Shown: positions 10,441 through 29,803 of the stretch, piece after piece
How the letters are laid out: the number at the start of each line of letters is the position of its first letter
Position numbering within the stretch: position 1 is the first letter of the stretch
Source of the DNA: an uncultured virus (IMG/VR IMGVR_UViG_3300016472_001133)
Taxonomy: Duplodnaviria; Heunggongvirae; Uroviricota; Caudoviricetes
Strand: one strand, 5' to 3'
DNA length: 64,000 bases
Virus record (IMG/VR): IMGVR_UViG_3300016472_001133
Translations under genes and position numbers: made by a program
The notes under the pieces: generated by a model
Seen by the model: only the letters and a program-made list of their open reading frames with translations
The model's database searches: none
Told to the model about the DNA's origin: nothing

Positions 10441-10456
10441 AAAAGTTTTCCTAGAT

Positions 10457-13041: not shown

Positions 13042-13223
13042 TGGAGATTCCTATAGGTACTTCTGAATCCATTCATCTCCCACTTCACGGTGGAGTTTCC
13101 AAGTAGAACCTCAACCATGTTCCAGGAAACGCGGAGAACCACACCGATCTCAGGGGTGTAACGGTGGATAACCAGGGATCCAGGTACCACCTGATTGATA
13201 CTGGGGATATCATTGTTTCTCAC
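13038..13223 (-). CDS. KOW/SH3-like array member
   Basis: VVPGSLVIH. Confidence 0.65.
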   Translation of the reverse strand: MRNNDIPSINQVVPGSLVIHRYTPEIGVVLRVSWNMVEVLLGNSTVKWEMNGFRSTYRNLQ

Positions 13224-13393
13224 CCCACAACCTCCAACATCTCCTTGGAATACCGGAAAACCTTATAGAGATCAGGTTGGCCGAGCAACCAAACCCGGTA
13301 CAAACCAGTTCCACCTTGAATATCGATAATCAACCCGAGTGAATCTGTTCTGTAGCCTTTCACTTTTACCAAATCACCTGGAGATGGAATCAT
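13220..13393 (-). CDS. KOW/SH3-like array member (57 aa, not in ORF track)
   Basis: Translated by hand: MIPSPGDLVKVKG...MLEVVG; overlaps both neighbours by 4 bp. Confidence 0.7.
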   Translation of the reverse strand: MIPSPGDLVKVKGYRTDSLGLIIDIQGGTGLYRVWLLGQPDLYKVFRYSKEMLEVVG

Positions 13394-13590
13394 TCCACCA
13401 CCTGGAAATGATATGAATCCTGAGGATAGTGGTTTATCTTCCCGTCGGAATCGATAACCTTTATGGTTTCACCACTGAACTTAATGTTTTTGTGCTCCAG
13501 GTAGATCCCAAACTTCCACCCGGATTCACGGTAAATCGGATCCATTAGATCAACAATATGGATGAATTTGAGAAGATCCCCAGGTTTCAT
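13390..13590 (-). CDS. KOW/SH3-like array member
   Basis: MKPGDLLKF. Confidence 0.7.
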   Translation of the reverse strand: MKPGDLLKFIHIVDLMDPIYRESGWKFGIYLEHKNIKFSGETIKVIDSDGKINHYPQDSYHFQVVE

Positions 13591-13820
13591 GTTTCATTCT
13601 CCAGGAAAATAAGATTAACCCAACCGATCTTCCCACCGGATACCATGATCCGTGCCCCGTTTCCACCTCGAGGTTGGGTTGTTTCAAGAACAACACCGAT
13701 CTCACCTGGTTGAATGGTTCCAATGGGTTTATCACCACCTTCCTTGTTTCCCCAGGTGGAAAAAAGTGGTGTGGAACTATAAACTTTCTTCATCCTCACC
13801 AAATCACCAATGCTAAACAT
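13587..13820 (-). CDS. KOW/SH3-like array member
   Basis: MFSIGDLVRM. Confidence 0.7.
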   Translation of the reverse strand: MFSIGDLVRMKKVYSSTPLFSTWGNKEGGDKPIGTIQPGEIGVVLETTQPRGGNGARIMVSGGKIGWVNLIFLENET

Positions 13821-14004
13821 CCCAACTCAACCTCTCAAAGTATTCACTGGAAACTAGTTTAACTCCACACTGGGTTAAAACATCATAAAATCCACGGTGA
13901 TTCCTACCTTCTCTATCCACAATCGGTTTCTCACCGAGGAGAATCCCCAAACCCCAATCAGAATAGATGGAAACGTTGAATCGAACCAAGGTTCCCCTTT
14001 TCAT
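13813..14004 (-). CDS. KOW/SH3-like array member
   Basis: MKRGTLVRF. Confidence 0.7.
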   Translation of the reverse strand: MKRGTLVRFNVSIYSDWGLGILLGEKPIVDREGRNHRGFYDVLTQCGVKLVSSEYFERLSWDV

Positions 14005-14225
14005 TCCACCACCTCCACATCCAACCGGTAAACCCAACGGATTCCCCAGGGAAATAGAACCTTACAAACATCCTGGCCCCACTGATTCTTGTGTTCCTCC
14101 AATAGAAGGAATGTTTCACCCTTTATCGTGTGTGTTTCCCATGAATCACATTGGGGCTCCCTGTAGATCCGAACCACACCAACCTGGATTTTACTCTTTG
14201 CCTGGAGAAGATCACCTAGAATCAT
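14001..14225 (-). CDS. KOW/SH3-like array member
   Basis: MILGDLLQA. Confidence 0.7.
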   Translation of the reverse strand: MILGDLLQAKSKIQVGVVRIYREPQCDSWETHTIKGETFLLLEEHKNQWGQDVCKVLFPWGIRWVYRLDVEVVE

Positions 14226-14418
14226 TGGTGATCCTCACGTAGGATTTCAAAAGGTTACTCACCAATTCCTGGGTGATCTTACCATCATACCAGGCCACAT
14301 ACACGGTACGGAAACCTGGATCAGGATCAGATAAAACAATCCCCTGGGAATATCTTCCACCCGGTGGAACATATGAACCCGGTGCCACGAGGAGTAAATC
14401 ACCAACACAAAAACTCAC
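14212..14418 (-). CDS. KOW/SH3-like array member (close paralog of 16480-16677)
   Basis: VGDLLLV..PPGGRYSQG. Confidence 0.7.
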   Translation of the reverse strand: MSFCVGDLLLVAPGSYVPPGGRYSQGIVLSDPDPGFRTVYVAWYDGKITQELVSNLLKSYVRITNDSR

Positions 14419-14603
14419 AGAGGATCCTCCGAAAGATCGTGTTTCTGGTAAGTAAACTTTTCACCGGTGTTTGGATCCACAACCACGAAGTAGGGATACG
14501 AAGAAAGCCCTACCTTGTAGATATCAATGATGATTAACGGTTTTGTTGGAGGAACAAAGAGAGAATCCCTCACGAAAACCATATCACCGAGAGATAGTTT
14601 CAC
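14415..14603 (-). CDS. KOW/SH3-like array member
   Basis: LSLGDMVFV. Confidence 0.65.
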   Translation of the reverse strand: MKLSLGDMVFVRDSLFVPPTKPLIIIDIYKVGLSSYPYFVVVDPNTGEKFTYQKHDLSEDPL

Positions 14604-14791
14604 TTCATCACCTCGAAGTTCCAAACCAAATGGTTTCCGAAATCAACATCTTTAATGATTCCGGTGTTCAACACGAACCTCCCCTCATAAGGTTGTCTCT
14701 TCTCATCAAATCTATTGGATGGGCCGAGATAAACACCAATGAAAGGTATCTCATCGAAACGAGTTAACCTAACCAGATCACCTGGTTTCAC
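14600..14791 (-). CDS. KOW/SH3-like array member
   Basis: MKPGDLVRL. Confidence 0.7.
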   Translation of the reverse strand: MKPGDLVRLTRFDEIPFIGVYLGPSNRFDEKRQPYEGRFVLNTGIIKDVDFGNHLVWNFEVMK

Positions 14792-15015
14792 TGGATCACC
14801 TCAAGCCACAGGGTCCAGTTAACCCAGCCGATCTTACCATCACACAGAACCTTGATCCAGGTTCCGTTAGGCGGGGTGAGAACAGTACTGATGGAATCCA
14901 TAGGAATTCCTTCCTTCGGAATTCCACGGTTAACACTTTCCGCGGTGAGATAAAAATGCATATAGCAACGGTTTCTAACCAGAACACCTGGAACCATACC
15001 GGAACTGGGCTTCAT
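14788..15015 (-). CDS. KOW/SH3-like array member
   Basis: MVPGVLVRN...KIGWV. Confidence 0.7.
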   Translation of the reverse strand: MKPSSGMVPGVLVRNRCYMHFYLTAESVNRGIPKEGIPMDSISTVLTPPNGTWIKVLCDGKIGWVNWTLWLEVIQ

Positions 15016-15224
15016 TCCATCACCTCGTTGAATCGATCGGAGGAGAAAACCATCATTTTATTGTGGGAAAACTTACTGGAAATTACTTCCACATAGTGAA
15101 CATCCTGAGATACTCCATCGATGGGGTTTCCAACCACCATGAAGATCTCATCTTGATCACCCATGTACTCATTCCAACGGTACAGTTTTCCAACCTGAAG
15201 TTCATGTACCCGGATGATCTCCAT
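15012..15224 (-). CDS. KOW/SH3-like array member
   Basis: LQVGKLYRW; leaderless start. Confidence 0.7.
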   Translation of the reverse strand: MEIIRVHELQVGKLYRWNEYMGDQDEIFMVVGNPIDGVSQDVHYVEVISSKFSHNKMMVFSSDRFNEVME

Positions 15225-15230
15225 GTTACC

Positions 15231-15260
15231 AGTATATCATCCCCTCACGGTGTTTTGCAC
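15231..15260 (-). promoter_or_regulatory. Phage promoter, leaderless type
   Basis: GTGCAAA-N17-TATACT-N6-ATG(15224). Confidence 0.8.
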
Positions 15261-15626
15261 TCAACTAAATTCCCCAATGATAAGATCATATGATTCATTT
15301 CCATGCCCAACACAGTGATCCCCATCATGTCTCTGTGGATCCATTCCCTCAGGTGACCATTTTCCAGGGCCACGAGTGGTGATGATCTTCAACATGTCCT
15401 CGGGCCGGACAACCTCATCATATTCATTGAGGATCTTGGTGTCAGGTTTATCCCAGGCCAACTTCCAATCATCCAAGGAATTGATACCTTCCTCAGGAAT
15501 GATGTGAAGGGAGAAACACCAACCATAGGAGGATTTTCCTATGTGTAACACCTTGGCACCGGGGTCATGCCCACAGTGTTCACACATCGAGGTTGATTTT
15601 TGGTGGAGATAATAGTTTGTACCCAC
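15261..15626 (-). CDS. Hypothetical phage protein (MGTNYY..CxxC..LHIGKSSxGW)
   Basis: 121-aa ORF, not a member of the array family. Confidence 0.75.
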   Translation of the reverse strand: MGTNYYLHQKSTSMCEHCGHDPGAKVLHIGKSSYGWCFSLHIIPEEGINSLDDWKLAWDKPDTKILNEYDEVVRPEDMLKIITTRGPGKWSPEGMDPQRHDGDHCVGHGNESYDLIIGEFS

Positions 15627-15629
15627 GGT

Positions 15630-15881
15630 TCACTTTCCTCCCAGAATCTCTTCCACCAGTAGCTCAGGTTCCCCTCTTCTCTCCGTTGCTCTCCAAGGTA
15701 AGGAACCCCTCTCTGCCCTTCGGAGTTGATCCACGGAATTCAATTCCTCAATCCGATACACCTCGGATCCACAGTTCCTAACCTCGGATTCTAGGTTTCT
15801 ATCCCCAATCCTCTCGGCCTCACGTTCATCACGGGCATCGATGAGGATTTCTGTATGGAATGTTACTCTATAGAGCGGCAT
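15630..15881 (-). CDS. Hypothetical protein
   Basis: ORF in the minus-strand run. Confidence 0.65.
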   Translation of the reverse strand: MPLYRVTFHTEILIDARDEREAERIGDRNLESEVRNCGSEVYRIEELNSVDQLRRAERGSLPWRATERRGEPELLVEEILGGK

Positions 15882-15884
15882 TGT

Positions 15885-16100
15885 TCAATATTCCTTGATG
15901 ATCTTTTTTGAGGTTTTGAAACCATCCCAATCCACGGTAACCTTCTCTATGATGATTGGATCACCTGGATCATAATGGGGAGATTCTCGAATCCATGTTT
16001 CGGAGAACTTCTCCACATCACCTTTCTCCCCGCTTTGGGCAAGAATCTTTCCTGATTTGGTGGAGGAAATGAAGTAGTGATGCCCTCTTTTGTTCTTCAT
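15885..16100 (-). CDS. Hypothetical protein
   Basis: ORF in the minus-strand run. Confidence 0.6.
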   Translation of the reverse strand: MKNKRGHHYFISSTKSGKILAQSGEKGDVEKFSETWIRESPHYDPGDPIIIEKVTVDWDGFKTSKKIIKEY

Positions 16101-16119
16101 GATGTTATCCTAAATCATC

Positions 16120-16308
16120 CTACGGTGGATTTTCACCGGGGAGGGAGAGGTAGTGATCAGAGATGATTTGTTTCCTACCATTGTGGAGTAGAACGGAGAA
16201 GAAACGGTGATCGATTGAGATGTTGTGGTGTTCCTCGGTGATTATCCCGAGTGTGGGGGAGATCATCCTCTGGGGATTGGTGTAGAGAACGAGATCACCA
16301 ACTCTCAC
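16120..16308 (-). CDS. KOW/SH3-like array member
   Basis: MRVGDLVLY. Confidence 0.7.
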   Translation of the reverse strand: MRVGDLVLYTNPQRMISPTLGIITEEHHNISIDHRFFSVLLHNGRKQIISDHYLSLPGENPP

Positions 16309-16493
16309 TCAACCTCCTGGAGATCCGATTCTCGGCAGTGAAGAACTCCGCGTTCCGGAAACAATACCTTCCAGTGGGGGAACGGATCATTTCCACGGGA
16401 TTCATGGGGGATGTGTTCCAGGATGATCCCAATATCACCAGGAAGATCCATTTGAAATCTAGCTCTCCACACAACGAGTTTACCGGGTTTCAC
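16305..16493 (-). CDS. KOW/SH3-like array member
   Basis: MKPGKLVVW. Confidence 0.7.
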   Translation of the reverse strand: MKPGKLVVWRARFQMDLPGDIGIILEHIPHESRGNDPFPHWKVLFPERGVLHCRESDLQEVE

Positions 16494-16677
16494 TGTTGAT
16501 CACCGTGTAGTACTTGGAAACATTACCCAAAAATTCCCTTGTGATCTTACCATCCCGCCACGCGATGGTGAGAAAACCCAGAGAGGTAGGGTTTGTTAGA
16601 ACAACACCCTGGGAATATCGGCCACCAGGCGGAACATGAGTTCCAGGATTCACCAGGAGAAGGTCACCGAGCTTCAT
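16480..16677 (-). CDS. KOW/SH3-like array member
   Basis: MKLGDLLLV; leaderless start. Confidence 0.7.
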   Translation of the reverse strand: MKLGDLLLVNPGTHVPPGGRYSQGVVLTNPTSLGFLTIAWRDGKITREFLGNVSKYYTVINSETR

Positions 16678-16683
16678 GGTTCT

Positions 16684-16713
16684 ATAATATCATCATCCCC
16701 CGGTGTTTTGCAC
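16684..16713 (-). promoter_or_regulatory. Phage promoter, leaderless type
   Basis: GTGCAAA-N17-TATTAT-N6-ATG(16677). Confidence 0.8.
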
Positions 16714-16974
16714 CGGGATAAAATCCCAAGTGTTTCCCCAACCTATCAAACCTGACTTGGTGATAATCCGAGTCATGAAGGTTTCATCATCGATCTGGAG
16801 AACAACACCGACATCACCCTTGAAAAACCGTCCCACGATCTTGGGAATCAAACCATCACGGTTCATCTCCATCGCAAAAACATCACCGCTGATGTCCACG
16901 AGGACCGTCAATCCCAAGGGTTTCTTGACCACATTGAGTCGGACCAGGTCACCGACCTTGTACTCAGGCTCCAA
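16693..16974 (-). CDS. KOW/SH3-like array member
   Basis: YKVGDLVRL. Confidence 0.7.
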   Translation of the reverse strand: MEPEYKVGDLVRLNVVKKPLGLTVLVDISGDVFAMEMNRDGLIPKIVGRFFKGDVGVVLQIDDETFMTRIITKSGLIGWGNTWDFIPVQNTGG

Positions 16975-17179
16975 TTAGCACCTTCGTGACATCACGATTG
17001 TCCACAAATATTTCCCTTAATTCCCCTGTTGTTTCCAGTATCTTAATTATGAAAGATCTTTTAAAGGAATCGAAGGGCATCAATGGGCAACGTTCCACCA
17101 GGAGACCGGTTATAGGTGGGTCATCCATGCGGAAACCATTGTGATAACGAGTCACAGAAACGTAATCACCCGGCTTCAC
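16964..17179 (-). CDS. KOW/SH3-like array member (similar to 11522-11728)
   Basis: MKPGDYVSV. Confidence 0.7.
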   Translation of the reverse strand: MKPGDYVSVTRYHNGFRMDDPPITGLLVERCPLMPFDSFKRSFIIKILETTGELREIFVDNRDVTKVLIGA

Positions 17180-17382
17180 AACGGCTTCACCTCACGGAAC
17201 CAAATCCACCCAGATCTACCATCGTTCATCATCACATGGTACCACTCGAGTTTGTTCTCGATCAGGACTCCCAAGGTGGGCTGTTTACCAGTGTTAAAAT
17301 GCCTCTTGGCCGAACCCCAATCCACGTTGCAACTGGCATGCGGTTCCACCTGAACAAGGTCACCTGCCTGAAGAGTTTTCAT
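17176..17382 (-). CDS. KOW/SH3-like array member
   Basis: LQAGDLVQV. Confidence 0.7.
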   Translation of the reverse strand: MKTLQAGDLVQVEPHASCNVDWGSAKRHFNTGKQPTLGVLIENKLEWYHVMMNDGRSGWIWFREVKPL

Positions 17383-17566
17383 CGACGACCTCCATCAGTG
17401 ATTCAATCTCGTCCACAACCACACCTCCCTCACACAGGACCGTCCACCATTGGTGCCTGTCATCTCCCCAGGTGTTGCTACGGTCAGATTCCTTGATGAT
17501 GATACCAACCAGAGGGGTGCCCTTCCAGAAGCCTTGCTTCCCACGAATGAGATCACCCGGCTTCAC
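17360..17566 (-). CDS. KOW/SH3-like array member
   Basis: VKPGDLIRG. Confidence 0.7.
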   Translation of the reverse strand: MKPGDLIRGKQGFWKGTPLVGIIIKESDRSNTWGDDRHQWWTVLCEGGVVVDEIESLMEVVDENSSGR

Positions 17567-17756
17567 TGAGGACCTCCGGTTGGTCACCACCCCGAAAAAC
17601 ATCATAAACGAACTTACGGCCGTCGGGCTCTAAGATCTCTATCGTGTAATCAATTCCACTGTGATAATTGGGCGGTGGATGGATGGATAGAACAACACCC
17701 ATGGCCGTCTGGTGATGAGCCCAAGTAAATCGAATCAGATCGCCCGGTTTGATCAC
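17553..17756 (-). CDS. KOW/SH3-like array member
   Basis: MIKPGDLIRF. Confidence 0.7.
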   Translation of the reverse strand: MIKPGDLIRFTWAHHQTAMGVVLSIHPPPNYHSGIDYTIEILEPDGRKFVYDVFRGGDQPEVLSEAG

Positions 17757-17962
17757 CCAATGACCTCCAAGTACGAGATGTGAAACCTAGCGAAGAGGGT
17801 CGATTCAGATCCCAGGCGAAGAACACGGTAGGAGTTCAACTGGTAGGCGGTGTACTTCGTAAATTTCCTACGAGAATTCGGGTCCACTGCGAGTCCCAAC
17901 ACCACACCCACCCAATCGCGGTTGATCTTGTGCCGAACCAGGTCACCGGGCTTCAGATCCAT
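17753..17962 (-). CDS. KOW/SH3-like array member
   Basis: MDLKPGDLVRH; leaderless start. Confidence 0.7.
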   Translation of the reverse strand: MDLKPGDLVRHKINRDWVGVVLGLAVDPNSRRKFTKYTAYQLNSYRVLRLGSESTLFARFHISYLEVIG

Positions 17963-17968
17963 AGGGTC

Positions 17969-17998
17969 AGTATACCACAGGAAAGACGGGTTTTGCAC
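17969..17998 (-). promoter_or_regulatory. Phage promoter, leaderless type
   Basis: GTGCAAA-N17-TATACT-N6-ATG(17962). Confidence 0.8.
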
Positions 17999-18217
17999 TC
18001 ATTGCTTTTCCATCCTGAAAATGGTGGCCGTGTTTAACTTCTGCAAACCGTCCTGAGTTAAGACTCGAATCCATCTTACGTTTCCGCGGTGAGGAAGGGG
18101 TGGAAGAACATCGATGAATGTACCCATGTAGTTCCAAACACCAGAAACCAGCTGGTAACGGATTAGGTCACCAGGATTAAGTTCTATGGTGTTGTGCCCG
18201 TGGTAAGTGATTTCCAT
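17999..18217 (-). CDS. KOW/SH3-like array member
   Basis: LNPGDLIRY. Confidence 0.7.
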   Translation of the reverse strand: MEITYHGHNTIELNPGDLIRYQLVSGVWNYMGTFIDVLPPLPHRGNVRWIRVLTQDGLQKLNTATIFRMEKQ

Positions 18218-18220
18218 GTT

Positions 18221-18424
18221 TCACCTGACTGAAACCCTGCGGAGGGTACCCATCTCGTGTTCCTTGATAATACCATCGTTCCATGCCACTTTATAAATCC
18301 ACGGAACTCCAAAGGGGCTCTTCAACAACTTTTTATCGATCTTCACCTCGAGAAGAATCCCTAACAACCGGGGATTCAACTCACCGTTCCAATCGATTTT
18401 TCTAACGAGGTCACCGGGGTTCAT
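18221..18424 (-). CDS. KOW/SH3-like array member
   Basis: MNPGDLVRK. Confidence 0.7.
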   Translation of the reverse strand: MNPGDLVRKIDWNGELNPRLLGILLEVKIDKKLLKSPFGVPWIYKVAWNDGIIKEHEMGTLRRVSVR

Positions 18425-18663
18425 CTTACCTTCTGAGCCTCCGATAGGTAACACCATCCGGCACCGTTGGGGGTGAGGACCTCGATTAACCTAGTTCTTC
18501 CTTGGGTATCGTTGAGGGTCTTCATACCGATGACGAGAGCCACGTGTTCAGGTTTCCAGTGGATCGTGTAGCCAAGTTCGGCATTTTCATCGAAGAGAAG
18601 AATGTCCCAAGTACCGATTGGAACCACAAGATCACCAACGTTTTTTCTACGAGACGACGACAT
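18421..18663 (-). CDS. KOW/SH3-like array member
   Basis: NVGDLVVP. Confidence 0.65.
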   Translation of the reverse strand: MSSSRRKNVGDLVVPIGTWDILLFDENAELGYTIHWKPEHVALVIGMKTLNDTQGRTRLIEVLTPNGAGWCYLSEAQKVR

Positions 18664-18679
18664 ACCACCACCGGAGATC

Positions 18680-18916
18680 CTATAGCTTTTTCACCTTGTC
18701 CATGTTCATCCAAACTTCTCTAGAGTCGAAGGCTATCCTGTAGTAATCATTCCGTTTTTCTAGTATGATTCCGATCGTGTCTGGTACTACGTAGATTGAC
18801 TTATGAAACCCACGGACTCTTGGATATGAAGAATACCCTCGCCGACCGTGTTGGGATTTTTCCCATTCGTGAGAAATAACGATGATAAGATCACCGGTCT
18901 TCATCATTTTGATCAA
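18680..18916 (-). CDS. KOW/SH3-like array member
   Basis: MKTGDLIIV. Confidence 0.7.
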   Translation of the reverse strand: MIKMMKTGDLIIVISHEWEKSQHGRRGYSSYPRVRGFHKSIYVVPDTIGIILEKRNDYYRIAFDSREVWMNMDKVKKL

Positions 18917-19150
18917 TCATAATTCATTTTTTAATAAAGTTTCTACAATATCATTTTGATCGATCCAAGAATCCCATATTTCTCCATCAATTTTCAAAAC
19001 TTTCAAATTAAAAATCGGTCCAGGACGACTTTGCTGAGAATCATACCTTGGAATGTGGGGAGACTCCAGAGAAATTGATAATAATATTCCTATAAACTTA
19101 TCGGAACATACTCCTCTTAATGTAATTTGTACTAAATCCCCAGGCGACAT
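18917..19150 (-). CDS. KOW/SH3-like array member
   Basis: MSPGDLVQI. Confidence 0.7.
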   Translation of the reverse strand: MSPGDLVQITLRGVCSDKFIGILLSISLESPHIPRYDSQQSRPGPIFNLKVLKIDGEIWDSWIDQNDIVETLLKNEL

Positions 19151-19151
19151 A

Positions 19152-19418
19152 TTAACTCAACGACTTTAACCACTCAAAAGGGACCCACCCTCTTCCTTGT
19201 GGAACTAAAATCATCGCGAATCCAGACGTATAAAATAAGTCTGGTACATCTAACGTTTCAACGATAAGACCTATGTCTCCACAGTAGAATCGAGTATTAT
19301 TTGGAATGGTTTTCTCTAGAGGTACTCTACAATACGTTAACCTGTAATCACCTTCAAAATTTGTAGTGATCAACTGTCCGCATTTAAATATTTTCTCTAA
19401 AGAAGAGCTTGATTGCAT
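19152..19418 (-). CDS. KOW/SH3-like array member
   Basis: FKCGQLIT...GRGWV. Confidence 0.7.
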   Translation of the reverse strand: MQSSSSLEKIFKCGQLITTNFEGDYRLTYCRVPLEKTIPNNTRFYCGDIGLIVETLDVPDLFYTSGFAMILVPQGRGWVPFEWLKSLS

Positions 19419-19427
19419 CTCCCATAA

Positions 19428-19817
19428 TTAACACGTAATTTTAGGAGCGCAAGCACAATTTATCGATTTGCAAAAATCAGGTCCATTTAGATCAACTCCG
19501 CAAGTTGGACAGTGCGTAATCGTTTTTGTGTAATCGCTTTCGTCCAACTTTTTCTGTTTCTTTTGCTTTTTCATATTTTTTACATTTTTCAACATAAAAT
19601 CCAAAATCCTAAATTTGTTTCCGTTTTCTAATAAAACGCTATAAATGTTTTTTTCTGAATCATACTCTACGATGAGACCCATTCTGTCAATGAGACCCTC
19701 ACCGATCACAAAACTATTTGGATCTTCAACTATCTTTACCAAATCTCCTACTTTAAATCTTTGAACATCTTTCGAGATAGCTTTGGTCTTTTTCTTTCCA
19801 ATGACATTACGCATCAT
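19428..19817 (-). CDS. KOW/SH3-like protein with Cys-rich tail
   Basis: FKVGDLVKI; CPTCG...C...CAC. Confidence 0.7.
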   Translation of the reverse strand: MMRNVIGKKKTKAISKDVQRFKVGDLVKIVEDPNSFVIGEGLIDRMGLIVEYDSEKNIYSVLLENGNKFRILDFMLKNVKNMKKQKKQKKLDESDYTKTITHCPTCGVDLNGPDFCKSINCACAPKITC

Positions 19818-20754
19818 TCTCCTTGCTCTTTTCAGAAATTAACCCTAATAGATCAAGTTGATCATAAGAATCTAAAATAAGAGATGCCAATAGAATATTG
19901 CTTGCATCCCATCTCCAAATTAATTCTTTAACCTTTCCACGTAAATGTTTCATGTCGACCGGTCGATTCCACATCACAGGACCATCTCCTAATTGAATCT
20001 TTTCAGCAAGATTGACGGCTGCATGTGATAGAATCTTTTGAGAATCGCTGGTTACTCTTAAGTTGTGTCGTACGGCCCATTTTGAGACTCTCCATAATAG
20101 GTTGTCCTTATCGCCCCTAAAAATCTCTAGCTCGCCCCTCTTTTCGCAATCTAACCAACGATTTGTGTAGTAAAATCCACTCTTGTCTAGATAACACTGC
20201 GCATTGACAATGTCAAAAGATTCAAGTATTTGACACGGATCACCTGTAATTTTCGTGATTGCTTGTACGAGGGCATTACCAAAATAATATTCTCGTCCCC
20301 ATCCAGCCAAAGTCGGAGCATCACCTGACGGATACAAGTTGGAGACTTTATACCTCTTCACTTCCATGTTGAGGAATTGGATGACATCAGATGCATCTGA
20401 ATCATTTTTAAAATAAAAGTCAATATCTCCAGCCCCTGATTTCCAAAAACGATTTTTAAGCCTATCTTCTGCATCCTTCGGGATTCTAAAAGATGGCAAA
20501 ATGAGGTATTCCTCTACACGGTTTTGAGGATCATCATTTTTAAATCTTGGACCTTCTTCTGGCAAAGTACCATAACTCAATTCAGAAAACAACCATCTGC
20601 CAACGATCGCAGCAGATCCTCCTGACACATAGCCGCCTCTTGAGAAGACGCCTTCCAACGTTTCGATGACACGTGGTATAAAGACGCGAGATTTTGCAAA
20701 TTTTTGCTTAATTAATCGCAAAGGATCACAGGAAAGTGCCTCAAACGATAACAT
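19807..20754 (-). CDS. Putative nucleotidyltransferase-fold protein
   Basis: GYVSGGSA...GDIDFYF; ILESFDI motif. Confidence 0.55.
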   Translation of the reverse strand: MLSFEALSCDPLRLIKQKFAKSRVFIPRVIETLEGVFSRGGYVSGGSAAIVGRWLFSELSYGTLPEEGPRFKNDDPQNRVEEYLILPSFRIPKDAEDRLKNRFWKSGAGDIDFYFKNDSDASDVIQFLNMEVKRYKVSNLYPSGDAPTLAGWGREYYFGNALVQAITKITGDPCQILESFDIVNAQCYLDKSGFYYTNRWLDCEKRGELEIFRGDKDNLLWRVSKWAVRHNLRVTSDSQKILSHAAVNLAEKIQLGDGPVMWNRPVDMKHLRGKVKELIWRWDASNILLASLILDSYDQLDLLGLISEKSKENDA

Positions 20755-20786
20755 AGATCCATACTACATCAAAGTTATGAGCTTTT

Positions 20787-21107
20787 TCACTGCTTCGATT
20801 TTTTTGATATTTTCATCCAAACTCCCCAAAGAACCGGGACTGCGATCCAATGAAGACACAGCATCCATGATATCGGCATTCCTGCATAAAATACAGGATG
20901 AACAAATTTTCCTAACGTCCAAAACGCGGCTGGAAACAGAACATCTTCTATTATTTCCCATCCAATGAATATGATGAGAAGAGGAACTCCTCCCTTTATG
21001 AACACATCTTTTAGTTCTGAAATAGAAAAATGTTCTAGTTTGTGCTTTAAACGATGCTTTAAAGCAAATGAAATTGATCTAAATAAATTTAATCCTCTTT
21101 GGAACAT
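20787..21107 (-). CDS. Small membrane protein
   Basis: Hydrophobic segments. Confidence 0.6.
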   Translation of the reverse strand: MFQRGLNLFRSISFALKHRLKHKLEHFSISELKDVFIKGGVPLLIIFIGWEIIEDVLFPAAFWTLGKFVHPVFYAGMPISWMLCLHWIAVPVLWGVWMKISKKSKQ

Positions 21108-21112
21108 CGCTG

Positions 21113-21122
21113 AATAATTATT
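21113..21122. promoter_or_regulatory. Palindromic AATAATTATT between divergent genes; candidate bidirectional late promoter
   Basis: ATAATTA lies 4 and 7 nt upstream of the ATGs at 21125 and 21107. Confidence 0.4.
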
Positions 21123-21124
21123 TC

Positions 21125-21760
21125 ATGCTTGAGACAGAACAAAAATTATACGAAATAATCTTAGAAGAAATTGAATCAATTTTAGGAGAAGAAGAGAAAA
21201 AAAGCAAGGTTAATCCTTCTTATCTAAAAGGTTCTCCTGAAAAGGAAAAGAGAGCAAAAGAAATAAGAGCGCGCGCAAAGAAAGACACTGATGATCCATC
21301 AGCTTATCGACCTTTTGCCACAGACAAAGACCCAAAGACTGGTGAGCCAATAAAAACAAAACCTTCCAAATGGAACAAGAAAGTTAAAGACATGTTCGGA
21401 GAATCATTAATCGAAAATGAAGACTTGTTAGAAGAAGATCTAGATTTGGCGGTCGACTTAGACGTCCTAAAAGAATTTATCGCGGAGGCCGTCCTCGAAG
21501 AGAAGAAAAAAGGAAACAACGTCACAAAAGCTCTGAAAAACAAGGCAGAAAAGTCTGGCGCGCCGATGAGCGCCTTGCGAGCAATCTATAATAAAGGTCT
21601 AGCAGCATGGAGAACGGGACATAGACCCGGGGCTTCTCAACATGCGTGGGCAATGGCCAGAGTCAATAGCGTGCTTGCAGGCGGTCCCGCAAGAAAAGTC
21701 GACGCCGCTCAATGGAATCAAATCAAAAAAGCACGTGGCAAAAAGAAGAAAAAGAAATGA
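21125..21760 (+). CDS. Conserved phage protein (AWRTGHRPGASQHAWAMARVNS domain)
   Basis: 211-aa ORF, basic C-terminal domain. Confidence 0.75.
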   Translation: MLETEQKLYEIILEEIESILGEEEKKSKVNPSYLKGSPEKEKRAKEIRARAKKDTDDPSAYRPFATDKDPKTGEPIKTKPSKWNKKVKDMFGESLIENEDLLEEDLDLAVDLDVLKEFIAEAVLEEKKKGNNVTKALKNKAEKSGAPMSALRAIYNKGLAAWRTGHRPGASQHAWAMARVNSVLAGGPARKVDAAQWNQIKKARGKKKKKK

Positions 21761-22134
21761 AAAAACCGTCTAGAATAAATGAGCTTGGCGCAGCAAAAAC
21801 TCACGTGGCTCTTGCCAAAATAAAAAAACAGTTAGATGAACCTGTCGTTGGCATCGGTAAAGTTATTAGCGCAATTCAAAAGAGCCAAAACGCTGACGTA
21901 ACTGGTGATGGTCAAGTCGATGATCAAGACAAGAAGGTTCTCGACGATTTAATAGCTCAACTCAATAATGTGGTCGCATACGTGGGTGGAGCTGGGATGG
22001 ACATATTTAATTTGAATTCTAGCTTGAGAAAAAACAAATACGTCGTATCTGCTATTGATGCCAACCTCGAAGAAAAAGTTCTTCGAGGCGTTCTTCGCGA
22101 GTTAATCAAAGAAGAACTTAAGCGTTCTCGATGA
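21757..22134 (+). CDS. Hypothetical protein with EF-hand/dockerin-like DVTGDGQVD loop
   Basis: ATGA overlap with upstream gene. Confidence 0.65.
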   Translation: MKKPSRINELGAAKTHVALAKIKKQLDEPVVGIGKVISAIQKSQNADVTGDGQVDDQDKKVLDDLIAQLNNVVAYVGGAGMDIFNLNSSLRKNKYVVSAIDANLEEKVLRGVLRELIKEELKRSR

Positions 22135-24453
22135 TCACTGTTCCTCCTTACAGGAATAGCTGATCTCCCATTTTTCTAGAACCGGTGTGTTCTTCTTGTT
22201 AGCGTCGACCTTGATACTGACCTCCAACTCCAGGAACTTCTTCTGAGCTTGAATCTTTCCAAGCACGTTGTAGAGGTCAACCGGACATGGTGACGGTCCG
22301 CTGGCCAAACAATCAGGAGATGCATTCGTCGATTTGGTCGACACAGAATACCAAGTTGCAGAAGAAAGATCTGCTTTCGTTCCCGCTGTCCTCACGCGGA
22401 ATGAAACTTCTGTGCCAGGCGGTGTTGTTGAATCCCAAGACAAGAAACCCCAGACTGGTGTCTCGCCAGATTCACAAGTAGTTTCATAAGATTCCACTTT
22501 GGTGGTATCTAGATAACCCCCTGGACATTTTGGTGGATATCCACAGGCCGCATTATAGAAGAATCCCCAGTTGTCACCCTTGAAGCACTCAGCCTTGTTG
22601 TAGCTGGCGTTCGTGGACGGGTTGACCATGACCTCGTCTCCGTCGACCACATTACAGCTCTTCACGTTGCGACACTCACCGGCCGGAATAGCTTCATCGG
22701 TGTAGCAGTACTTCGCACCCGGAAGCGATGTTGGTTCTGTTCCAAAATAACCTGAACCCTTCGGCATGATTGCGATCGGAATACCTTTCGGTGCTTCTTT
22801 GGACCCAGTGTTGCAGATTGGGACGATCGGCGTGTTACCTGATTGACAGGTGAGGCCAACCCCGAGTTCAAAGTCTCCACACTTGTCATCGAAGTTTGGA
22901 GCCTCCCATTCTACACAATCACCGGCTCCCTTCTTGACTCCATCGCAATAGTTGTGACATGTATCGTGGACCGCATTGATACAGGTGGCATCCCAATCTC
23001 CCTTCCAACTCATGGGACAAGCTCCAGGATTATAAACCTTGTATTGATCTACGCACTTTTGGGTCCACTCACCCTCGTAACTCTTCTCGCAGGAATAATA
23101 GATCCAACCGTACTCAGGCTCATCCCAACACTTTTGTGTCAGTTCCCACCAGCACTCGTAACGCTCTTCCCACCAACATTCATACACGTATTGCTGCTCC
23201 CACCAGCACTCATAAACATAGATCTGTTCCCACCAACACTCGTACACATATCGAAGCTCCCACCAGCATTCATATACGTAGATCTGTTCCCACCAACACT
23301 CATAGACATATACTTGTTCCCACCAGCACTCGTACCGGTAATCCCACCAGCAAGTGTAGCACCATTCGCACCAGAAGAAGTTACAACAATAATTCCACCC
23401 GCAAACATAGGTCTGTCGCCAGCCACAGACGTATACTTCTCTCCATCTCCATCCGCAAACGTATATTTCTCTCCACCGCCACCCGCAGACGTAGAACTCA
23501 CGCCATCTCCAGCCACATTTATAAATTTCTCTCCAACGCCAACCACATGTGTATACTTCTCTCCATCTCCATCCGCAGAAATAGTAATTACGCCAGCCAC
23601 ACTTGTAAGTTTCGATCCATTCGCAAACCTGTTTATATCCAATGATTCCCCAATAACTACAGGTTTCGATCTGAGTATAAGGGCAACACGTCTTGTCCCA
23701 ATCACAGGTCTTCTTGACATTTGGATCGCAATCTTTAGTTAACCCCTTTTGATAGGTCAAGCAAGGTTCGACTTCACAAGTACCTGTATACTTCTTCTCG
23801 CAGCACTGAGGCTTCTCGTCACAGATCTTGTCAACACACTTGGTCTCACAACCCTTGATTAAACCTGCACCTTTGGTGCAGATGTCATGAGAGCAACTTC
23901 CTTGAGCTGGATCTTGACACTTCTGGTTCTGGTGGCATTGCGAACCATGTGTGCAAGGTTCTTTGGCTGCGCCTCCCTTGTTCGCCTTATCGATACTATC
24001 CGCTGGAGTGCTAGACCAATTCCACGGCCATTTGCAGATAGAACCGTCTGCCTTCCACTTCCCATCTTCTACCCACTTACTGCAACGAGGATCGCAGGGA
24101 TTATCAGTGCAAACTTTTTCAGAGGTTAGCGATAAAGGTTTGCCATCATCATTTGGAATTTTTTTGACATCTTCGCCGTCTGAACAGTCAGACCATTCAC
24201 CATCTACACAAGTTTGAACTCCAACGAAGCAACTAAGAACACCTTCATGTTCACCAAGCGCAACATGACAAGTTCGTTTTTCTTCTTCTTTGCAGGATTC
24301 AGGTTCTTTAGGTTCGTTGCCCCCCTGCGAAGAATCGCTTATGTCATCAGAAAAAACTACATCAGTAGTTGTCTCTTTTGTTTCGCTTACGCATGAAATT
24401 ATTGCGCAAATGGCTAAAGCAAAAAATTTTTTTAAATGCGAAGATGAATTCAT
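22135..24453 (-). CDS. Exported Cys-rich (lipo)protein with mirror-symmetric Cys/Trp repeats
   Basis: Signal peptide ending IISC; CGWRWRExY and YECWWEQxY repeats. Confidence 0.85.
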   Translation of the reverse strand: MNSSSHLKKFFALAICAIISCVSETKETTTDVVFSDDISDSSQGGNEPKEPESCKEEEKRTCHVALGEHEGVLSCFVGVQTCVDGEWSDCSDGEDVKKIPNDDGKPLSLTSEKVCTDNPCDPRCSKWVEDGKWKADGSICKWPWNWSSTPADSIDKANKGGAAKEPCTHGSQCHQNQKCQDPAQGSCSHDICTKGAGLIKGCETKCVDKICDEKPQCCEKKYTGTCEVEPCLTYQKGLTKDCDPNVKKTCDWDKTCCPYTQIETCSYWGIIGYKQVCEWIETYKCGWRNYYFCGWRWREVYTCGWRWREIYKCGWRWREFYVCGWRWREIYVCGWRWREVYVCGWRQTYVCGWNYCCNFFWCEWCYTCWWDYRYECWWEQVYVYECWWEQIYVYECWWELRYVYECWWEQIYVYECWWEQQYVYECWWEERYECWWELTQKCWDEPEYGWIYYSCEKSYEGEWTQKCVDQYKVYNPGACPMSWKGDWDATCINAVHDTCHNYCDGVKKGAGDCVEWEAPNFDDKCGDFELGVGLTCQSGNTPIVPICNTGSKEAPKGIPIAIMPKGSGYFGTEPTSLPGAKYCYTDEAIPAGECRNVKSCNVVDGDEVMVNPSTNASYNKAECFKGDNWGFFYNAACGYPPKCPGGYLDTTKVESYETTCESGETPVWGFLSWDSTTPPGTEVSFRVRTAGTKADLSSATWYSVSTKSTNASPDCLASGPSPCPVDLYNVLGKIQAQKKFLELEVSIKVDANKKNTPVLEKWEISYSCKEEQ

Positions 24454-24491
24454 TAGTTATTGATAATATACTACAAACAACAAAAAATGAA

Positions 24492-24836
24492 CTAAACTCT
24501 TCCGTAACTGTCTTCTAGCCTGATAACATCATCAAGTTCAGAAGTTGAAACTTCAATCACGTCAACATCTCCGTCATACGCGGACATTCTATGAATAATA
24601 GTAGGTTTAATTCTTATCGAATCTCCAGAATTCATTTTAAAGATTTTCCTAGACTCGCCTTCTCTTATTTCCATCGTTAAAATACCTGATTGAACCAATA
24701 TCGTTTCATCTTTTACGTTATGATATTGTAGCGATAGACAAAACCCATTTGAAATATGGAGAATTTTCCCAACATATTTTTCAGTTTCCGCCCAAATCAG
24801 TTCATGCCCCCACGGTTTGTCAACTTTTCTAGCCAT
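24492..24836 (-). CDS. Cupin, mannose-6-phosphate-isomerase C-terminal-like
   Basis: KPWG, LSLQYH..KDET, HRM, EVST..DDVIRLEDSYGR. Confidence 0.8.
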   Translation of the reverse strand: MARKVDKPWGHELIWAETEKYVGKILHISNGFCLSLQYHNVKDETILVQSGILTMEIREGESRKIFKMNSGDSIRIKPTIIHRMSAYDGDVDVIEVSTSELDDVIRLEDSYGRV

Positions 24837-24853
24837 TTTTTTCCCCTTGAAAA

Positions 24854-25846
24854 TCATATGGCTTCTGGATTATCACTCCAATGTATAATAACATCTTTTC
24901 CAACTTGAGTCGTGATAAAATCTTTGATTGCCCACTCAGAAGAGAAAGAAAGTTTTCTTCCTTTATAATACATGTTCCATGCTCGGATTTCTCTTAAAAT
25001 ATCCATCTTCGATATAACAAGATCTGTCACACCATTGACTTTTACTGCTTTAACTAGATTATCAATATTCAACCAATTACACTGCCGCGGCCTATTGGTG
25101 GTTGCACCAAACTCATTACCTAGTTGCCTAATCTTTTCAAAAACTGGATCTTTCGGTTCAAACTTCTTTGAACCAACATAAGTCTCATAAATTTTTGCTG
25201 CTCCATAAATTCTTCTAATCTTTTGTGGTGGAACTCCATTCATAACTGCAGATCCAACCGTACAATGAGAAGAAGTCACATAGGGATAATCACCCCAGTC
25301 TATGTCTAAATAAAATCCTTGCGCTCCTTCAAAGAGGATGCTGCATTCTTGTTTTTCATGAAATTCTTCATAAACATCAATTAAATAAGGTTGTAATTCA
25401 TGAAAATCTTCAGCACGTTTTCCTTTTCTTGCGTACTTGTCTCTATATGCAGGTCCGTTGCCTCGTTTTGTTGTTCCGATTGAAACGTCTTGTTGATCTT
25501 CTTCAAGATGCTTATTAGTAATGATATGAGTATTTTTTGAAATAAAAACTAAATCATCCGGATCAATTCCTTTATCATAAAGCATATCCATTTCATCAAA
25601 GAAATGATCTATATTAAGAACGCAACCAGGGCCAATGATGCTTTTTACACCATGAAGAACGCCGGCAGGAATGCTATGCGTAACAATTTTTTTGCCTTCA
25701 ACATAAACCGTATGCCCAGCATTATTAGATCCGTTGTATCTAACTGAATGTGTATATTCGCCAGTCTGAACCAATGCGTTCGAAATTTTTCCTTTTCCGC
25801 TATCACCTTGTTGTAGGTCTAAAATTACATCTGCAAACTTAATCAT
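24854..25846 (-). CDS. purA: Adenylosuccinate synthetase (short form)
   Basis: QGDSGKGK, NNAGHT, IGTTKRGNGPAYRDK, EGAQG, EFGATTNRPR. Confidence 0.88.
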   Translation of the reverse strand: MIKFADVILDLQQGDSGKGKISNALVQTGEYTHSVRYNGSNNAGHTVYVEGKKIVTHSIPAGVLHGVKSIIGPGCVLNIDHFFDEMDMLYDKGIDPDDLVFISKNTHIITNKHLEEDQQDVSIGTTKRGNGPAYRDKYARKGKRAEDFHELQPYLIDVYEEFHEKQECSILFEGAQGFYLDIDWGDYPYVTSSHCTVGSAVMNGVPPQKIRRIYGAAKIYETYVGSKKFEPKDPVFEKIRQLGNEFGATTNRPRQCNWLNIDNLVKAVKVNGVTDLVISKMDILREIRAWNMYYKGRKLSFSSEWAIKDFITTQVGKDVIIHWSDNPEAI

Positions 25847-26193
25847 AGCATTTTTCCTTTTTTAATCAAAAAATTTTCAAGGGCCATTCTACGTTCTTCA
25901 AGATCTTTAATTTCTTGTTCTAAAGTCGATTTTACTCTTATAAATGAGTTAAGCTTTGCATTCTCTTCGTCTTCTTTGGAAAACTTCTTTTTATCTTTCG
26001 CCGTTTGAAACAATGCGCATCCTATGGATCCAAAAATAGAAATTATTGCAAAGAAAAGAAGATATCCTCCGATTGTATGCGTTTTTGATCCCATGAATCC
26101 CATGCTAACGCCAATTAATCCAAAGATTTTTGCAATTATAAAAAGAGTAATCGCGACTTTATTTAAGGGTTCTACTTTCATAAATGTATTCAC
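25843..26193 (-). CDS. Membrane protein, 2 TM plus coiled coil
   Basis: Hydrophobic segments. Confidence 0.65.
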   Translation of the reverse strand: MNTFMKVEPLNKVAITLFIIAKIFGLIGVSMGFMGSKTHTIGGYLLFFAIISIFGSIGCALFQTAKDKKKFSKEDEENAKLNSFIRVKSTLEQEIKDLEERRMALENFLIKKGKML

Positions 26194-26196
26194 AAC

Positions 26197-26460
26197 TTAC
26201 AATATCTCTTTTATTTCATCAAAGAAGCACAACCCAACACCATCAGGAATTAAAACCTTAATTCCTATTTGACCTTCTTCTGGGGGTAGAACAATTCCGA
26301 TTTCTCCTTTTTTCCATTCTGGCCAAGATAAAAAATTTTCTTGCTCGAAAACTGATATAGGAGTTAAATAAAAAGATTCTCTTTGGTTAAACGAAGTAGG
26401 AACAACTAATGACCCTACTTTCACAGAAATAGAATACAACGATTCTTTTCTTTTTTTCAC
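26197..26460 (-). CDS. Dispersed KOW/SH3-like protein
   Basis: VKVGSLVVP...GEIGIVL; start uncertain. Confidence 0.55.
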   Translation of the reverse strand: MKKRKESLYSISVKVGSLVVPTSFNQRESFYLTPISVFEQENFLSWPEWKKGEIGIVLPPEEGQIGIKVLIPDGVGLCFFDEIKEIL

Positions 26461-26481
26461 AATTTTATTCTTTGCTGAAAC

Positions 26482-26506
26482 AAAAACGCCCTCCGTTAAG
26501 AGGGCG
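26482..26506 (-). terminator. Intrinsic terminator
   Basis: CGCCCTC/GAGGGCG stem followed by T5 on the minus strand. Confidence 0.6.
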
Positions 26507-26529
26507 ACCAAAATGGTTTTTATTTCTTG

Positions 26530-27174
26530 CTACTTATAAGAAGATACTTTAACAAATGACTTATGCAGTTGCTCTTGTTTTTCTTTTGCCGCAGAAAGAT
26601 CTTCTGGCGATTTTTCCATCAACTTTTTATAAAAAGATAATCGATGTTTTACACCAGACCAGTTGCAAGATTTAACTCCGCCGTAAATTGACATTGCACC
26701 CATGATTGTGTGACATTGTCTCATTCCGATCGACAAATATCGAACAGCGACATTCGCAGAAACCGTCGTGCTCTCTTGAGATGAAGAATTCATTTTTGAA
26801 TATTCTTCCTTCGAGACAAGCCCAGTTCTCTGAATTTGCCAAGGTGATCTTGCCTTGTGAATAAGGTGACCGTCTTTTCGGTACGAATCACATTCGTATG
26901 GTCTGCATTTTCCTTCATGAACGTTTTTTGCAAACTTAGATTCCCAATATCCCTTAGTGACCAAGAGAATTGCTAAGCTTTTTTTATCTTGTGGCCAAGT
27001 TGCTACGCAACCTTCTACGTTGTACTTGTCAGAGCATGTTGCTCTAGATGAAGCATCATCAATCGCTTCAGCGATGATTGTCATCCTATCAGTGCGTTCC
27101 TGCCAGGTCTCGTTATCGCCATAGGCGGGTTGAAGTCCTAGCAAAATTGTTGTAATGTATGCTATGAAACTCAT
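26530..27174 (-). CDS. Putative exported protein, possibly lysozyme-like
   Basis: Hydrophobic N-terminus; WESKF...PWQI pattern. Confidence 0.5.
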   Translation of the reverse strand: MSFIAYITTILLGLQPAYGDNETWQERTDRMTIIAEAIDDASSRATCSDKYNVEGCVATWPQDKKSLAILLVTKGYWESKFAKNVHEGKCRPYECDSYRKDGHLIHKARSPWQIQRTGLVSKEEYSKMNSSSQESTTVSANVAVRYLSIGMRQCHTIMGAMSIYGGVKSCNWSGVKHRLSFYKKLMEKSPEDLSAAKEKQEQLHKSFVKVSSYK

Positions 27175-27290
27175 GGCAATTTATATATTACATTTGATCA
27201 CATTGTTCACAAAAAAATTTTTTATTTTTTCAAATTCGCGTATGAATTTGAAACGTGTAAAGAAAAAAAACAAACGTTACTATTCAAAAA

Positions 27291-29077: not shown

Positions 29078-29803
29078 TTATATAGCACCTTCTTTCATAA
29101 GAAACTTAACAATCGTGTTTTTATGAATGAAATAAGTTAAAAAAGGTCCTGAAGTAGAAATATATGAACATAATCCTACAAGATGTCCATTCAAATCGAA
29201 CGCACCACCGCCAGAATTTCCTAGCCAAGCTGGTGATGATATTTGAATAACTTTTTCCGTGGGAAATAAATCCGGAGTTTTTAAGTTATTTCTTATTGAT
29301 GAGACATATCCTTTAGAAAAAGTCCATCCTAACCCGACTGTGTGGCCCATGATGTTAACTTCTTCACCAGGCTCAACAATTTCGTCAGTTATTTCGACGA
29401 CATCATGAGGCGGTTCTGAACTCGGGTCAACTAAAAGAAGCGCCAAATCGTTAATTTCATCGTTCGATTTTACTATAGCTAAATGGAATGAGCTTTCATT
29501 AAGCTCATCATAAGTTATATACGTTATCAATTCATCTTTATTAACGCAATGATTTGCAGTTAACAACATTCCGCGATTAATCCAAATGGCAGCACAATGG
29601 ATCATTTGATCTGAAGTGTCTAAACTAGTAAGTGCGACTGTCAATCTTTTTATTTTCTTTACGTTTTCTATCTGAGAAGATCTTTGCATTTCATGTTCGT
29701 TTAAAACATTACTCACTTTAGGAGTTTGAACATGCGAAGATGAACAACAACCTACCAGGAAGAAGAACGACCCCAAGATTAGCGAGCTCATGAAATTTTT
29801 CAC
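29078..29803 (-). CDS. Trypsin-like serine protease, lipoprotein-like signal
   Basis: LTANHC, DLALL, GNSGG catalytic triad. Confidence 0.85.
   Translation of the reverse strand: MKNFMSSLILGSFFFLVGCCSSSHVQTPKVSNVLNEHEMQRSSQIENVKKIKRLTVALTSLDTSDQMIHCAAIWINRGMLLTANHCVNKDELITYITYDELNESSFHLAIVKSNDEINDLALLLVDPSSEPPHDVVEITDEIVEPGEEVNIMGHTVGLGWTFSKGYVSSIRNNLKTPDLFPTEKVIQISSPAWLGNSGGGAFDLNGHLVGLCSYISTSGPFLTYFIHKNTIVKFLMKEGAI

Follow-up and report, generated by a model that had tools for sequence, protein, structure and literature searches.

The 64,000-nucleotide stretch analyzed here (the window; uncultured virus record IMGVR_UViG_3300016472_001133) carries a gene for a cysteine-rich lipoprotein of 772 residues, P0001, whose middle region we consider highly likely to be a long, two-stranded antiparallel hairpin stapled by disulfides. 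The structure is probable, very probably a giant stapled hairpin, and its function is what we infer. Positions are window coordinates unless residue numbers are given, and P and L numbers designate relative proteins and DNA loci, respectively. The stretch on which a preliminary description of this DNA had focused, 23089-23661 on the minus strand, corresponds to residues 265-455 of the 772-residue open reading frame (ORF).

The spacings of the cysteines in this region are 12,8,8,10,10,10,10,10,8 on the outgoing arm, 5,1,5,3,3 at the tip, and 8,10,10,10,10,10,8,8,13 on the return arm, with exclusively even spacings in the ladder; this mirror, the consensus of the repeat units, and the tip sequence are exactly as initially described. 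Nine consecutive Cys pairs, from 277-442 to 351-368, and the additional pair 357-362 have residue numbers that sum to 719 (ten pairs), and those of C265 and C455 sum to 720. A nine-rung ladder was obtained in none of 20,000 shuffles of the Cys spacings, and a stricter null, in which the return-arm spacings alone were reordered, gave 1/56. Because of the latter value, the spacing order in the window protein alone is modest evidence, and the weight rests on the relatives described below. The arms are two separate 30-nt arrays with 71-72% matches; a DNA inverted repeat was rejected as the cause of the mirror, as the comparison of an arm with the reverse complement gave 10% identity. The ORFs that overlap the repeat on the opposite strand or in another frame (22843-23742 and 23136-23645 on the plus strand, 23139-23720 on the minus strand) were interpreted as its shadows.

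In the 719 register, the Cys-bearing face is 72% aromatic versus 15% on the opposite face, and 20 of the 29 non-Cys pairs on the Cys face are aromatic-aromatic, compared to 1 of 37 on the other face. The bias had the same direction in all 13 hairpins examined, and proline is absent from residues 277-442. Mirror ladder and aromatic face are thus both evident at the sequence level. Cross-strand disulfides favor the same positions as aromatic cross-strand pairs, and from the parity that the aromatic pairs have in common with the Cys pairs, the former would occupy non-hydrogen-bonded positions. At such sites, aromatic cross-strand pairs stabilize hairpins, which is the basis of tryptophan zippers (available text of PMC12291216), and the two-faced geometry of hairpins has been described (excerpt of PMC3592999). 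The concentration of cross-strand aromatic pairs on one face is shared with the trpzip peptides; unlike these, the hairpin is natural, has W-Y and not W-W pairs, repeats these pairs about 20 times, and interleaves them with the predicted disulfides.

Complementary charges of the two arms had also been proposed, and the net charges in the window copy, +7 on the outgoing and -12 on the return arm (-5 for the 166-residue ladder region), agree with this. However, there is one direct Arg/Glu opposite-charge pair, with nine on each diagonal, and the arms of relatives are like-charged or uncharged (outgoing/return +25/+8 in P0008, -9/-9 in P0010, and 0/0 in P0009), with arm charges that span +25 to -35. 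As far as sequences can tell, the conserved design feature is the aromatic zipper and not charge pairing.

Structure prediction, which had been suggested as a check, gave a strand-turn-strand arrangement with low to moderate confidence. With an alignment of 44 sequences, AlphaFold produced a model with a mean predicted local distance difference test (pLDDT) of 76 and strands at 259-309, 325-357, 362-394, and 410-459, the breaks being symmetric about 719. With 13 close sequences, the strands 266-357 and 362-452 were unbroken (pLDDT about 60-69), and both models have a turn at residues 358-361. The long stapled hairpin of the preliminary description is therefore supported by the ladder, the aromatic face, and both models. 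Three aspects of the predictions speak against it: the mid-arm gap in the better, 44-sequence model has a pLDDT of 39-50, the 13-sequence model is poor overall (mean 46), and the repeat alignments themselves may favor a hairpin in the models. The predicted cross-strand disulfides are supported by the mirror register, by both models, and by the paired indels described below. A beta strand rises about 0.33 nm per residue, from which the 75-residue ladder would measure about 25 nm, or about 30 nm with the stem, if straight; twist would shorten it.

As the weight of the argument rests on relatives, we compared the two arms across the family. Among 170 sequences scanned, 15 have perfect ladders of 7-17 rungs, some of them distant proteins with VWA domains. 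In P0007, an irregular 10/12 spacing pattern is mirrored over 17 rungs, and the mirror is kept in P0008-P0010, P0012, and P0022, which are distant and have unrelated arm sequences. The 38 loci examined as DNA contain 32 complete hairpins (five loci end inside the hairpin and one before it), which represent 24 distinct hairpins in ten length classes of 46-194 residues, and in 22 of these 24 the arms are equal; under permutation, 4.3 equal cases arose on average and 12 at most. More telling than this count are close pairs with paired indels: the window copy and L029, at about 96% identity, are set apart by a single 30-nt indel in each arm, and L037 and L045 by a single 60-nt indel in each arm.

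Several observations weigh against a strict coupling of the arms. The 24 hairpins are related, so that the count overstates their independence. Unequal arms occur in L036 (84/74), L041 (64/54), P0004, and P0006 (176/132), as well as in one bacterial cluster, where they were seen in 10 of the 13 full-length members covered (15 of 18 members in all, two of them fragments). In this cluster, 10 of the 13 are identical outside the repeats, and neither arm exceeds 18 units. The DNA of the 18/18 form contains a 107-nt exact match at a 66-nt period, compared with 25-42 nt in the window and three viral loci, and P0184 is an equal-armed twin of P0004 with identical flanks. The unequal arms in the cluster probably reflect repeat collapse in assembly, the alternative being real slippage. 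The initial view that the arms must expand in register, and that homologs should have matched repeat counts, thus holds for the great majority of the DNA-read hairpins but is not a rule: joint expansion is a strong tendency with exceptions, and in-register selection on arm lengths is likely. As each arm needs its own event or a double crossover, brief out-of-register forms are to be expected, and L041 may be one.

The same data bear on a quite different possibility, namely that each arm forms a solenoid or an amyloid-like repeat by itself, its disulfides being local, or that the cysteines bind metal, the mirror being incidental. The low mid-arm pLDDT and the existence of unequal-armed sequences would fit, but irregular spacings are mirrored rung for rung, indels are paired, the return unit lacks a Gly or Pro turn, and neither model shows turns within an arm except for the one symmetric low-confidence gap, which makes such folding highly improbable.

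Some irregularities were seen within individual loci. The hairpin of L052 has equal arms but contains an in-frame stop and odd substitutions, and the frame of L036 ends just after the return arm; both would be assembly errors or decay. Between the window copy and L029, the hairpin DNA is about 90% identical versus about 96% in the rest of the gene, and since these differences are mostly silent, frequent conversion among units or alleles is suggested. Within 500 scaffold codons, the window gene differs from L029 by 59 synonymous and 5 non-synonymous codons, and from L002 by 51 and 5; by this measure, the gene is under purifying selection in phage.

At the tip, the preliminary description had envisaged a knob, which we do not find. 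The 16 tip residues form continuous strand and a four-residue turn in the models, and C-x4-C alone is present in P0005, P0007, L001, and L058. C357-C362 brackets an aromatic NFFW turn in the window protein, C356 and C365 probably pair, and the tips of all hairpin relatives shown are rich in Trp, Gly, and Phe, some being a short Trp/Gly turn. The proposed resemblance to the stalk-and-knob loops of bovine antibodies is not supported either. What is common with the bovine ultralong heavy-chain complementarity-determining region 3 (CDR H3) is a beta-ribbon that projects from a carrier domain. The bovine loop has 40-70 residues, carries its disulfides in a three-stranded knob, and is part of an antibody (available part of PMC5994613), whereas the hairpin is an insert of about 205 residues in a small Cys domain with the predicted disulfides along the stalk, no knob, and no antibody domain. 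By loop size, antibody domain, and knob, it does not belong to this class.

Long hairpins form the stems of beta-pore toxins. It is conceivable that hairpins act side by side as a beta-barrel tube, sheet, or fiber (a channel, spacer, or matrix filament), with the tip entering a membrane, and the Trp/Gly/Phe-rich tips, the hydrophobic residues on both faces, and the two free edges would agree with this. Foldseek returned two beta-pore toxins at no better than E 6e-3 to 1e-2 with template modeling (TM) scores of 0.05-0.07. An oligomer appears unlikely to us, as the four-fold range of arm lengths (46-194) and the charges of +25 to -35 are hard to fit to a fixed pore, and cross-strand disulfides and aromatic pairs stabilize monomeric hairpins, as in trpzip (PMC12291216, available text).

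The hairpin is in its working analogous to a much enlarged combination of cystine-ladder and tryptophan-zipper hairpins. With theta-defensins and protegrin, it would share a single antiparallel hairpin and cross-strand disulfide braces, along with an Arg/Trp-rich strand, and tachyplesin is likewise a disulfide-braced cystine-ladder hairpin. Beta-hairpin antimicrobial peptides have 11-25 residues, are cationic, and are free, and the theta-defensins comprise 18 residues with three disulfides and a cyclic backbone (PMC13001179, as far as its text is available). In contrast, the window hairpin has 166 residues (166-394 between the outer rungs in close relatives, with up to about 19 rungs), a net charge of -5, and two repeat arrays, and lies inside a 772-residue lipoprotein; in size, charge, and lack of a free peptide form, it falls outside this group.

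The hairpin is carried by an out-and-back scaffold (Table 1). As initially proposed, a small Cys domain is duplicated and nested, with the outer copy (187-218 and 487-503) around the inner copy (226-257 and 463-479); the N-terminal halves of the two share 14/35 identities (E 4e-4), and W487, C491, V495, C499, and C503 are invariant across 44 sequences. The lipoprotein-like signal was also confirmed: residues 1-21 show a signal peptidase II-type pattern of basic n-region, hydrophobic h-region, and lipobox Cys, and C21 in the lipobox-like IISC is invariant in alignments A2 and A3 and nearly so in A1. The lipobox pattern matches most of 10 proteins checked, with P0004 lacking a match. From this signal, lipidation and surface exposure of the protein would follow. 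The G+C (GC) content is, as described, raised to 47.1% versus 34.4% and 40.1% in the 2-kb flanks. According to VIA-align, residues from about 106 to 140 and 650-772 form one jelly-roll (best Z 9.1 with 8okh, root mean square deviation (rmsd) 3.0, 133 aligned), and 514-636 are a CARDB-like sandwich (Z 7.7, rmsd 3.3, 93 aligned to 2l0d; Z 7.5 to 3idu). Background Z values are 6.5-8, and such matches reflect common folds and say nothing on function. Because N-terminal strands and C-terminal domain share one jelly-roll, and because of the nesting, the chain runs out and back at every level.

Table 1. Layout of the hairpin lipoprotein gene and the basis for each assignment.
Feature	Position	Strand	Basis
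Whole gene	22135..24453	-	P0001, Cys-rich lipoprotein; 70 of 772 residues are Cys
Lipoprotein-type signal peptide, lipobox-like IIS-C21	24391..24453	-	sequence pattern and C21 conservation
Low-confidence linker after signal peptide	24295-24390	-	pLDDT <50 for residues 1-44
Small Cys beta-hairpin domain, 54-93	24175..24294	-	strands 59-69 and 72-83 in both models
N-terminal strand(s), ~106-140, completing the split jelly-roll with the C-terminal domain	24034..24138	-	VIA-align
Outer small Cys domain, N-half, 187-218, CC at end	23800..23895	-	sequence alignment
Inner small Cys domain, N-half, 226-257, CC at end	23683..23778	-	sequence alignment
Predicted outgoing stem of hairpin, 258-276; C265 opposite C455	23626..23682	-	model and register
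Outgoing arm, 277-351, units CGWRWRExYx, 30-nt array	23401..23625	-	repeat and register analysis
Tip, 352-367, no separate knob	23353..23400	-	turn 358-361 in both models and register
Return arm, 368-442, units CWWExxYVYE, 30-nt array	23128..23352	-	repeat and register analysis
Predicted return stem, 443-462	23068..23127	-	model and register
Inner small Cys domain, C-half, W463...C479	23017..23067	-	helix 465-474 in model
Outer small Cys domain, C-half, W487...C503	22945..22995	-	conserved positions in 44 sequences
Ig-like/CARDB-like beta-sandwich, 514-636; VWA inserted after it in relatives	22546..22914	-	VIA-align
C-terminal jelly-roll beta-sandwich, 650-772	22138..22506	-	model and structural alignment

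Searches for similar proteins led to the scaffold and not to the hairpin. P0001 had no Pfam and no NCBIfam family match, and relatives carry the precomputed label PF26780. A sequence search of the PDB with profile A1 gave a best E of 0.014, limited to the VWA and lectin regions of relatives, and the ESM Atlas gave no usable match for the whole protein or for 258-462. A search with the hairpin alone returned the same seven family proteins among longer proteins and none among proteins of 111-356 residues. Foldseek against PDB and BFVD gave no convincing match (TM at most 0.12), and the VIA-align matches were limited to the two beta-sandwich domains, which is a weak negative, since hairpin and nested domains were not searched as separate models. 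No solved structure of like build was found in the PDB sequence and structure searches, in which the hairpin was not searched alone, and no published description of the ladder design or the family was found in openly licensed PMC articles and bioRxiv, subscription papers lying outside this search.

The scaffold family comprises 771 representatives at E <=0.001; 19 loci from the genome collection have mostly Polyangiaceae titles, and the family is present in 176/201 genomes of the family of genome G001. By its sequence relationships, the scaffold is a Polyangiaceae lipoprotein family, with nested Cys domains up to five deep and CARDB-like, VWA, and C-type lectin cargo. Most members have no hairpin, and the window copy is phage-borne and lacks VWA and lectin domains. 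In a hand-picked set of 40 long relatives, a C-type lectin domain (Lectin_C) was found in 22 and VWA in 19. The cargo sits in the CC|W loops of the small Cys domains, and because relatives carry lectin, carbohydrate-binding, and VWA cargo, adhesion or recognition at the surface is the likeliest role of the hairpin, although, being drawn by analogy, this role is no better than tentative. One point against the analogy is that the lectin domains are mostly in the loop of the outer copy, whereas the hairpin occupies the inner loop; other globular cargo has a hairpin-like placement in the innermost loop, such as a GH115_C-like domain in P0075. In P0025, P0044, P0065, and P0139, the small Cys domain is nested 3-5 deep, with all N-halves followed by all C-halves, which may be an out-and-back stalk built from domains instead of a hairpin; the count of nesting depth is rough, as the regular expressions were balanced in 55/102 proteins.

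The myxobacterial kin-recognition receptor TraA is likewise a Cys-rich, polymorphic surface protein and might serve as a model of allele-specific recognition. It combines a type I signal with a PA14-like variable domain, Cys repeats, and MYXO-CTERM, and traB lies next to its gene (PMC6372800, in the text available). The hairpin protein has none of the PA14-like domain, MYXO-CTERM, and type I signal, but a lipobox and a C-terminus that is a jelly-roll strand, and is therefore not a TraA. Families of the traB type (beta-barrel, TSP3, OmpA) were not seen among the neighbors in the window or at the host locus L007.

The host copy in L007 has a DsbA-like gene three genes upstream. This DsbA-like thioredoxin (L007:1691-2632) lies between two FG-GAP/ASPIC genes, and a DUF4215 protein is encoded directly downstream of the host copy. 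An ORF at L008:1594-2532 resembles the DsbA-like ORF by length and place alone. A DsbA-like gene was not found in the phage record (G000, 65% complete), a point against the reading favored below.

The window is part of this 211,097-base record, in which T4-like terminase, portal, prohead protease, and Gp23 capsid genes lie at 4-15 kb and tail-like genes, read from ORF sequences, extend up to about 57 kb; by these genes, the genome is that of a T4-like jumbo phage. At 116-118 kb, the hairpin gene is separated from the head and tail genes by about 60 kb, and its surroundings include host-type genes such as purA. It had been proposed that the protein could be displayed on the virion, and weak jelly-roll matches include phage tail proteins (9nwi, Z 8.0, rmsd 3.1, 119 aligned). 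However, the lipoprotein signal is kept in the phage copies examined, the gene is remote from the structural genes at 4-57 kb, BFVD matches do not exceed TM 0.12, and jelly-roll Z values can reflect the common fold alone, so that a virion fiber or appendage contacting the host is very unlikely and display on the virion was not upheld.

The gene appears to have been swapped repeatedly between phage and myxobacteria. In the viral locus L001, DNA identity to the Polyangiaceae gene L007 is 89-100% across the distal 7+tip+7 units and 50-77% across the proximal 4+4 units, of which the four in the return arm are 79-92% like those of the window; both junctions are at mirror rungs. L047, whose neighbors match this phage genome, and L050, on a GC-rich bacterial contig, have an identical 555-nt hairpin within a common tract of about 1 kb, with 61-87% identity outside. 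In L004 and L048, the third-position GC of the hairpin is host-like (0.89 and 0.77), while that outside is phage-like (0.14-0.40). The window copy itself has no such contrast (0.52 versus 0.49-0.50), and the nearest bacterial genes match it at 69-73% identity. In a scaffold tree, in which L050 is not a separate row and which recombination blurs, a branch with 95/98 support sets 13 phage rows and P0182 apart, L007 being their neighbor. Against repeated exchange, L047 alone could be a chimeric assembly, and host-identical tracts could result from neutral gene conversion. From these similarities, Polyangiaceae would be the host of this jumbo phage, and within 7700-27200 of the window, the hairpin gene was the only one with a DNA match in the two candidate host genomes.

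The host-like tracts could also be explained if the host protein or its ligand is the phage receptor and the phage lipoprotein blocks superinfection or re-adsorption of progeny. Such a role would explain why the phage tracks the host allele, in line with the hairpin tracts of several phage copies that equal or resemble those of the host, and receptor-blocking phage lipoproteins such as T5 Llp and Cor exist. Those known to us, however, are small lipoproteins unrelated to a host gene, whereas the phage protein is of near full-length host type, and we consider this decoy role improbable.

Other host-type genes in the window encode isocitrate lyase (37278-38531), adenylosuccinate synthetase (24854-25846), a transglycosylase (7776-9416), an FGE-sulfatase-like protein (40515-41402), a carbon-nitrogen hydrolase (45601-46359), and a trypsin-like protease (29078-29791). 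Three further host-derived-looking genes follow just after the capsid region (G000:C1:16993-21070; L025, L026), two with lipoprotein-like starts, one of these with a weak DUF1585 match, and one with a twin-arginine-like start. At 58256-63898, several ORFs appear to make up a DnaE-type polymerase gene, which shows intein-like ends and is interrupted by a further ORF. Three similar low-GC ORFs (4243-5214, 9547-10440, and G000:C1:141366-142346) have a start that we take to be GIY-YIG-like and are probably mobile endonucleases. A promoter and terminator scan was uninformative (8 found versus 4.5 +/- 2.4, and 2 versus 1.9).

Taken together, we favor, as reasonably probable, a lipid-anchored out-and-back protein with a giant hairpin that is phage-borne and acts on the infected-cell surface. 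Both chain ends would meet at the base in the split jelly-roll, with the two small Cys domains nested in between, and the innermost loop would be one very long antiparallel hairpin ending in an aromatic turn, kept in register by 9-11 cross-strand disulfides, spaced 8-10 residues apart, together with Trp/Tyr pairs that share their face. The protein would be exported and lipid-anchored, and its ladder oxidized by the host. The phage lineage would have acquired the gene from Polyangiaceae and would repeatedly recombine hairpin tracts with host copies. Arm lengths would shift through separate indels in the two arms or through double crossovers, and most products that are out of register would be eliminated. 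Most likely, the protein would be produced in the course of infection and presented on the surface of the infected cell, where the rod could alter attachment to surfaces or neighbors.

A bolder reading, which we rate as doubtful at present, would be a new class of repeat proteins, in which two different tandem arrays are paired antiparallel and rung for rung into one rod, zipped by disulfides and aromatic residues and adjustable in length (about 15-65 nm across relatives), that serves myxobacteria as an allele-specific recognition probe and is copied by jumbo phages from the current host via cassette exchange; infected cells would then display a host-matched probe that binds kin or shields receptors. 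The building blocks are known, as disulfide ladders and tryptophan zippers occur in peptides of up to about 25 residues, and the novelty would lie in the predicted architecture: a natural version that is 7-15 times longer and tunable in steps of about 3 nm would, if true, be a new way to build thin rods and a scaffold for design. It also poses the genetic question of how two separate arrays stay equal in length, for which the phage-host mosaics are natural experiments. For the biology of these bacteria, the finding points to Polyangiaceae as hosts of this group of jumbo phages and to a putative route by which a phage may alter the surface of its host.

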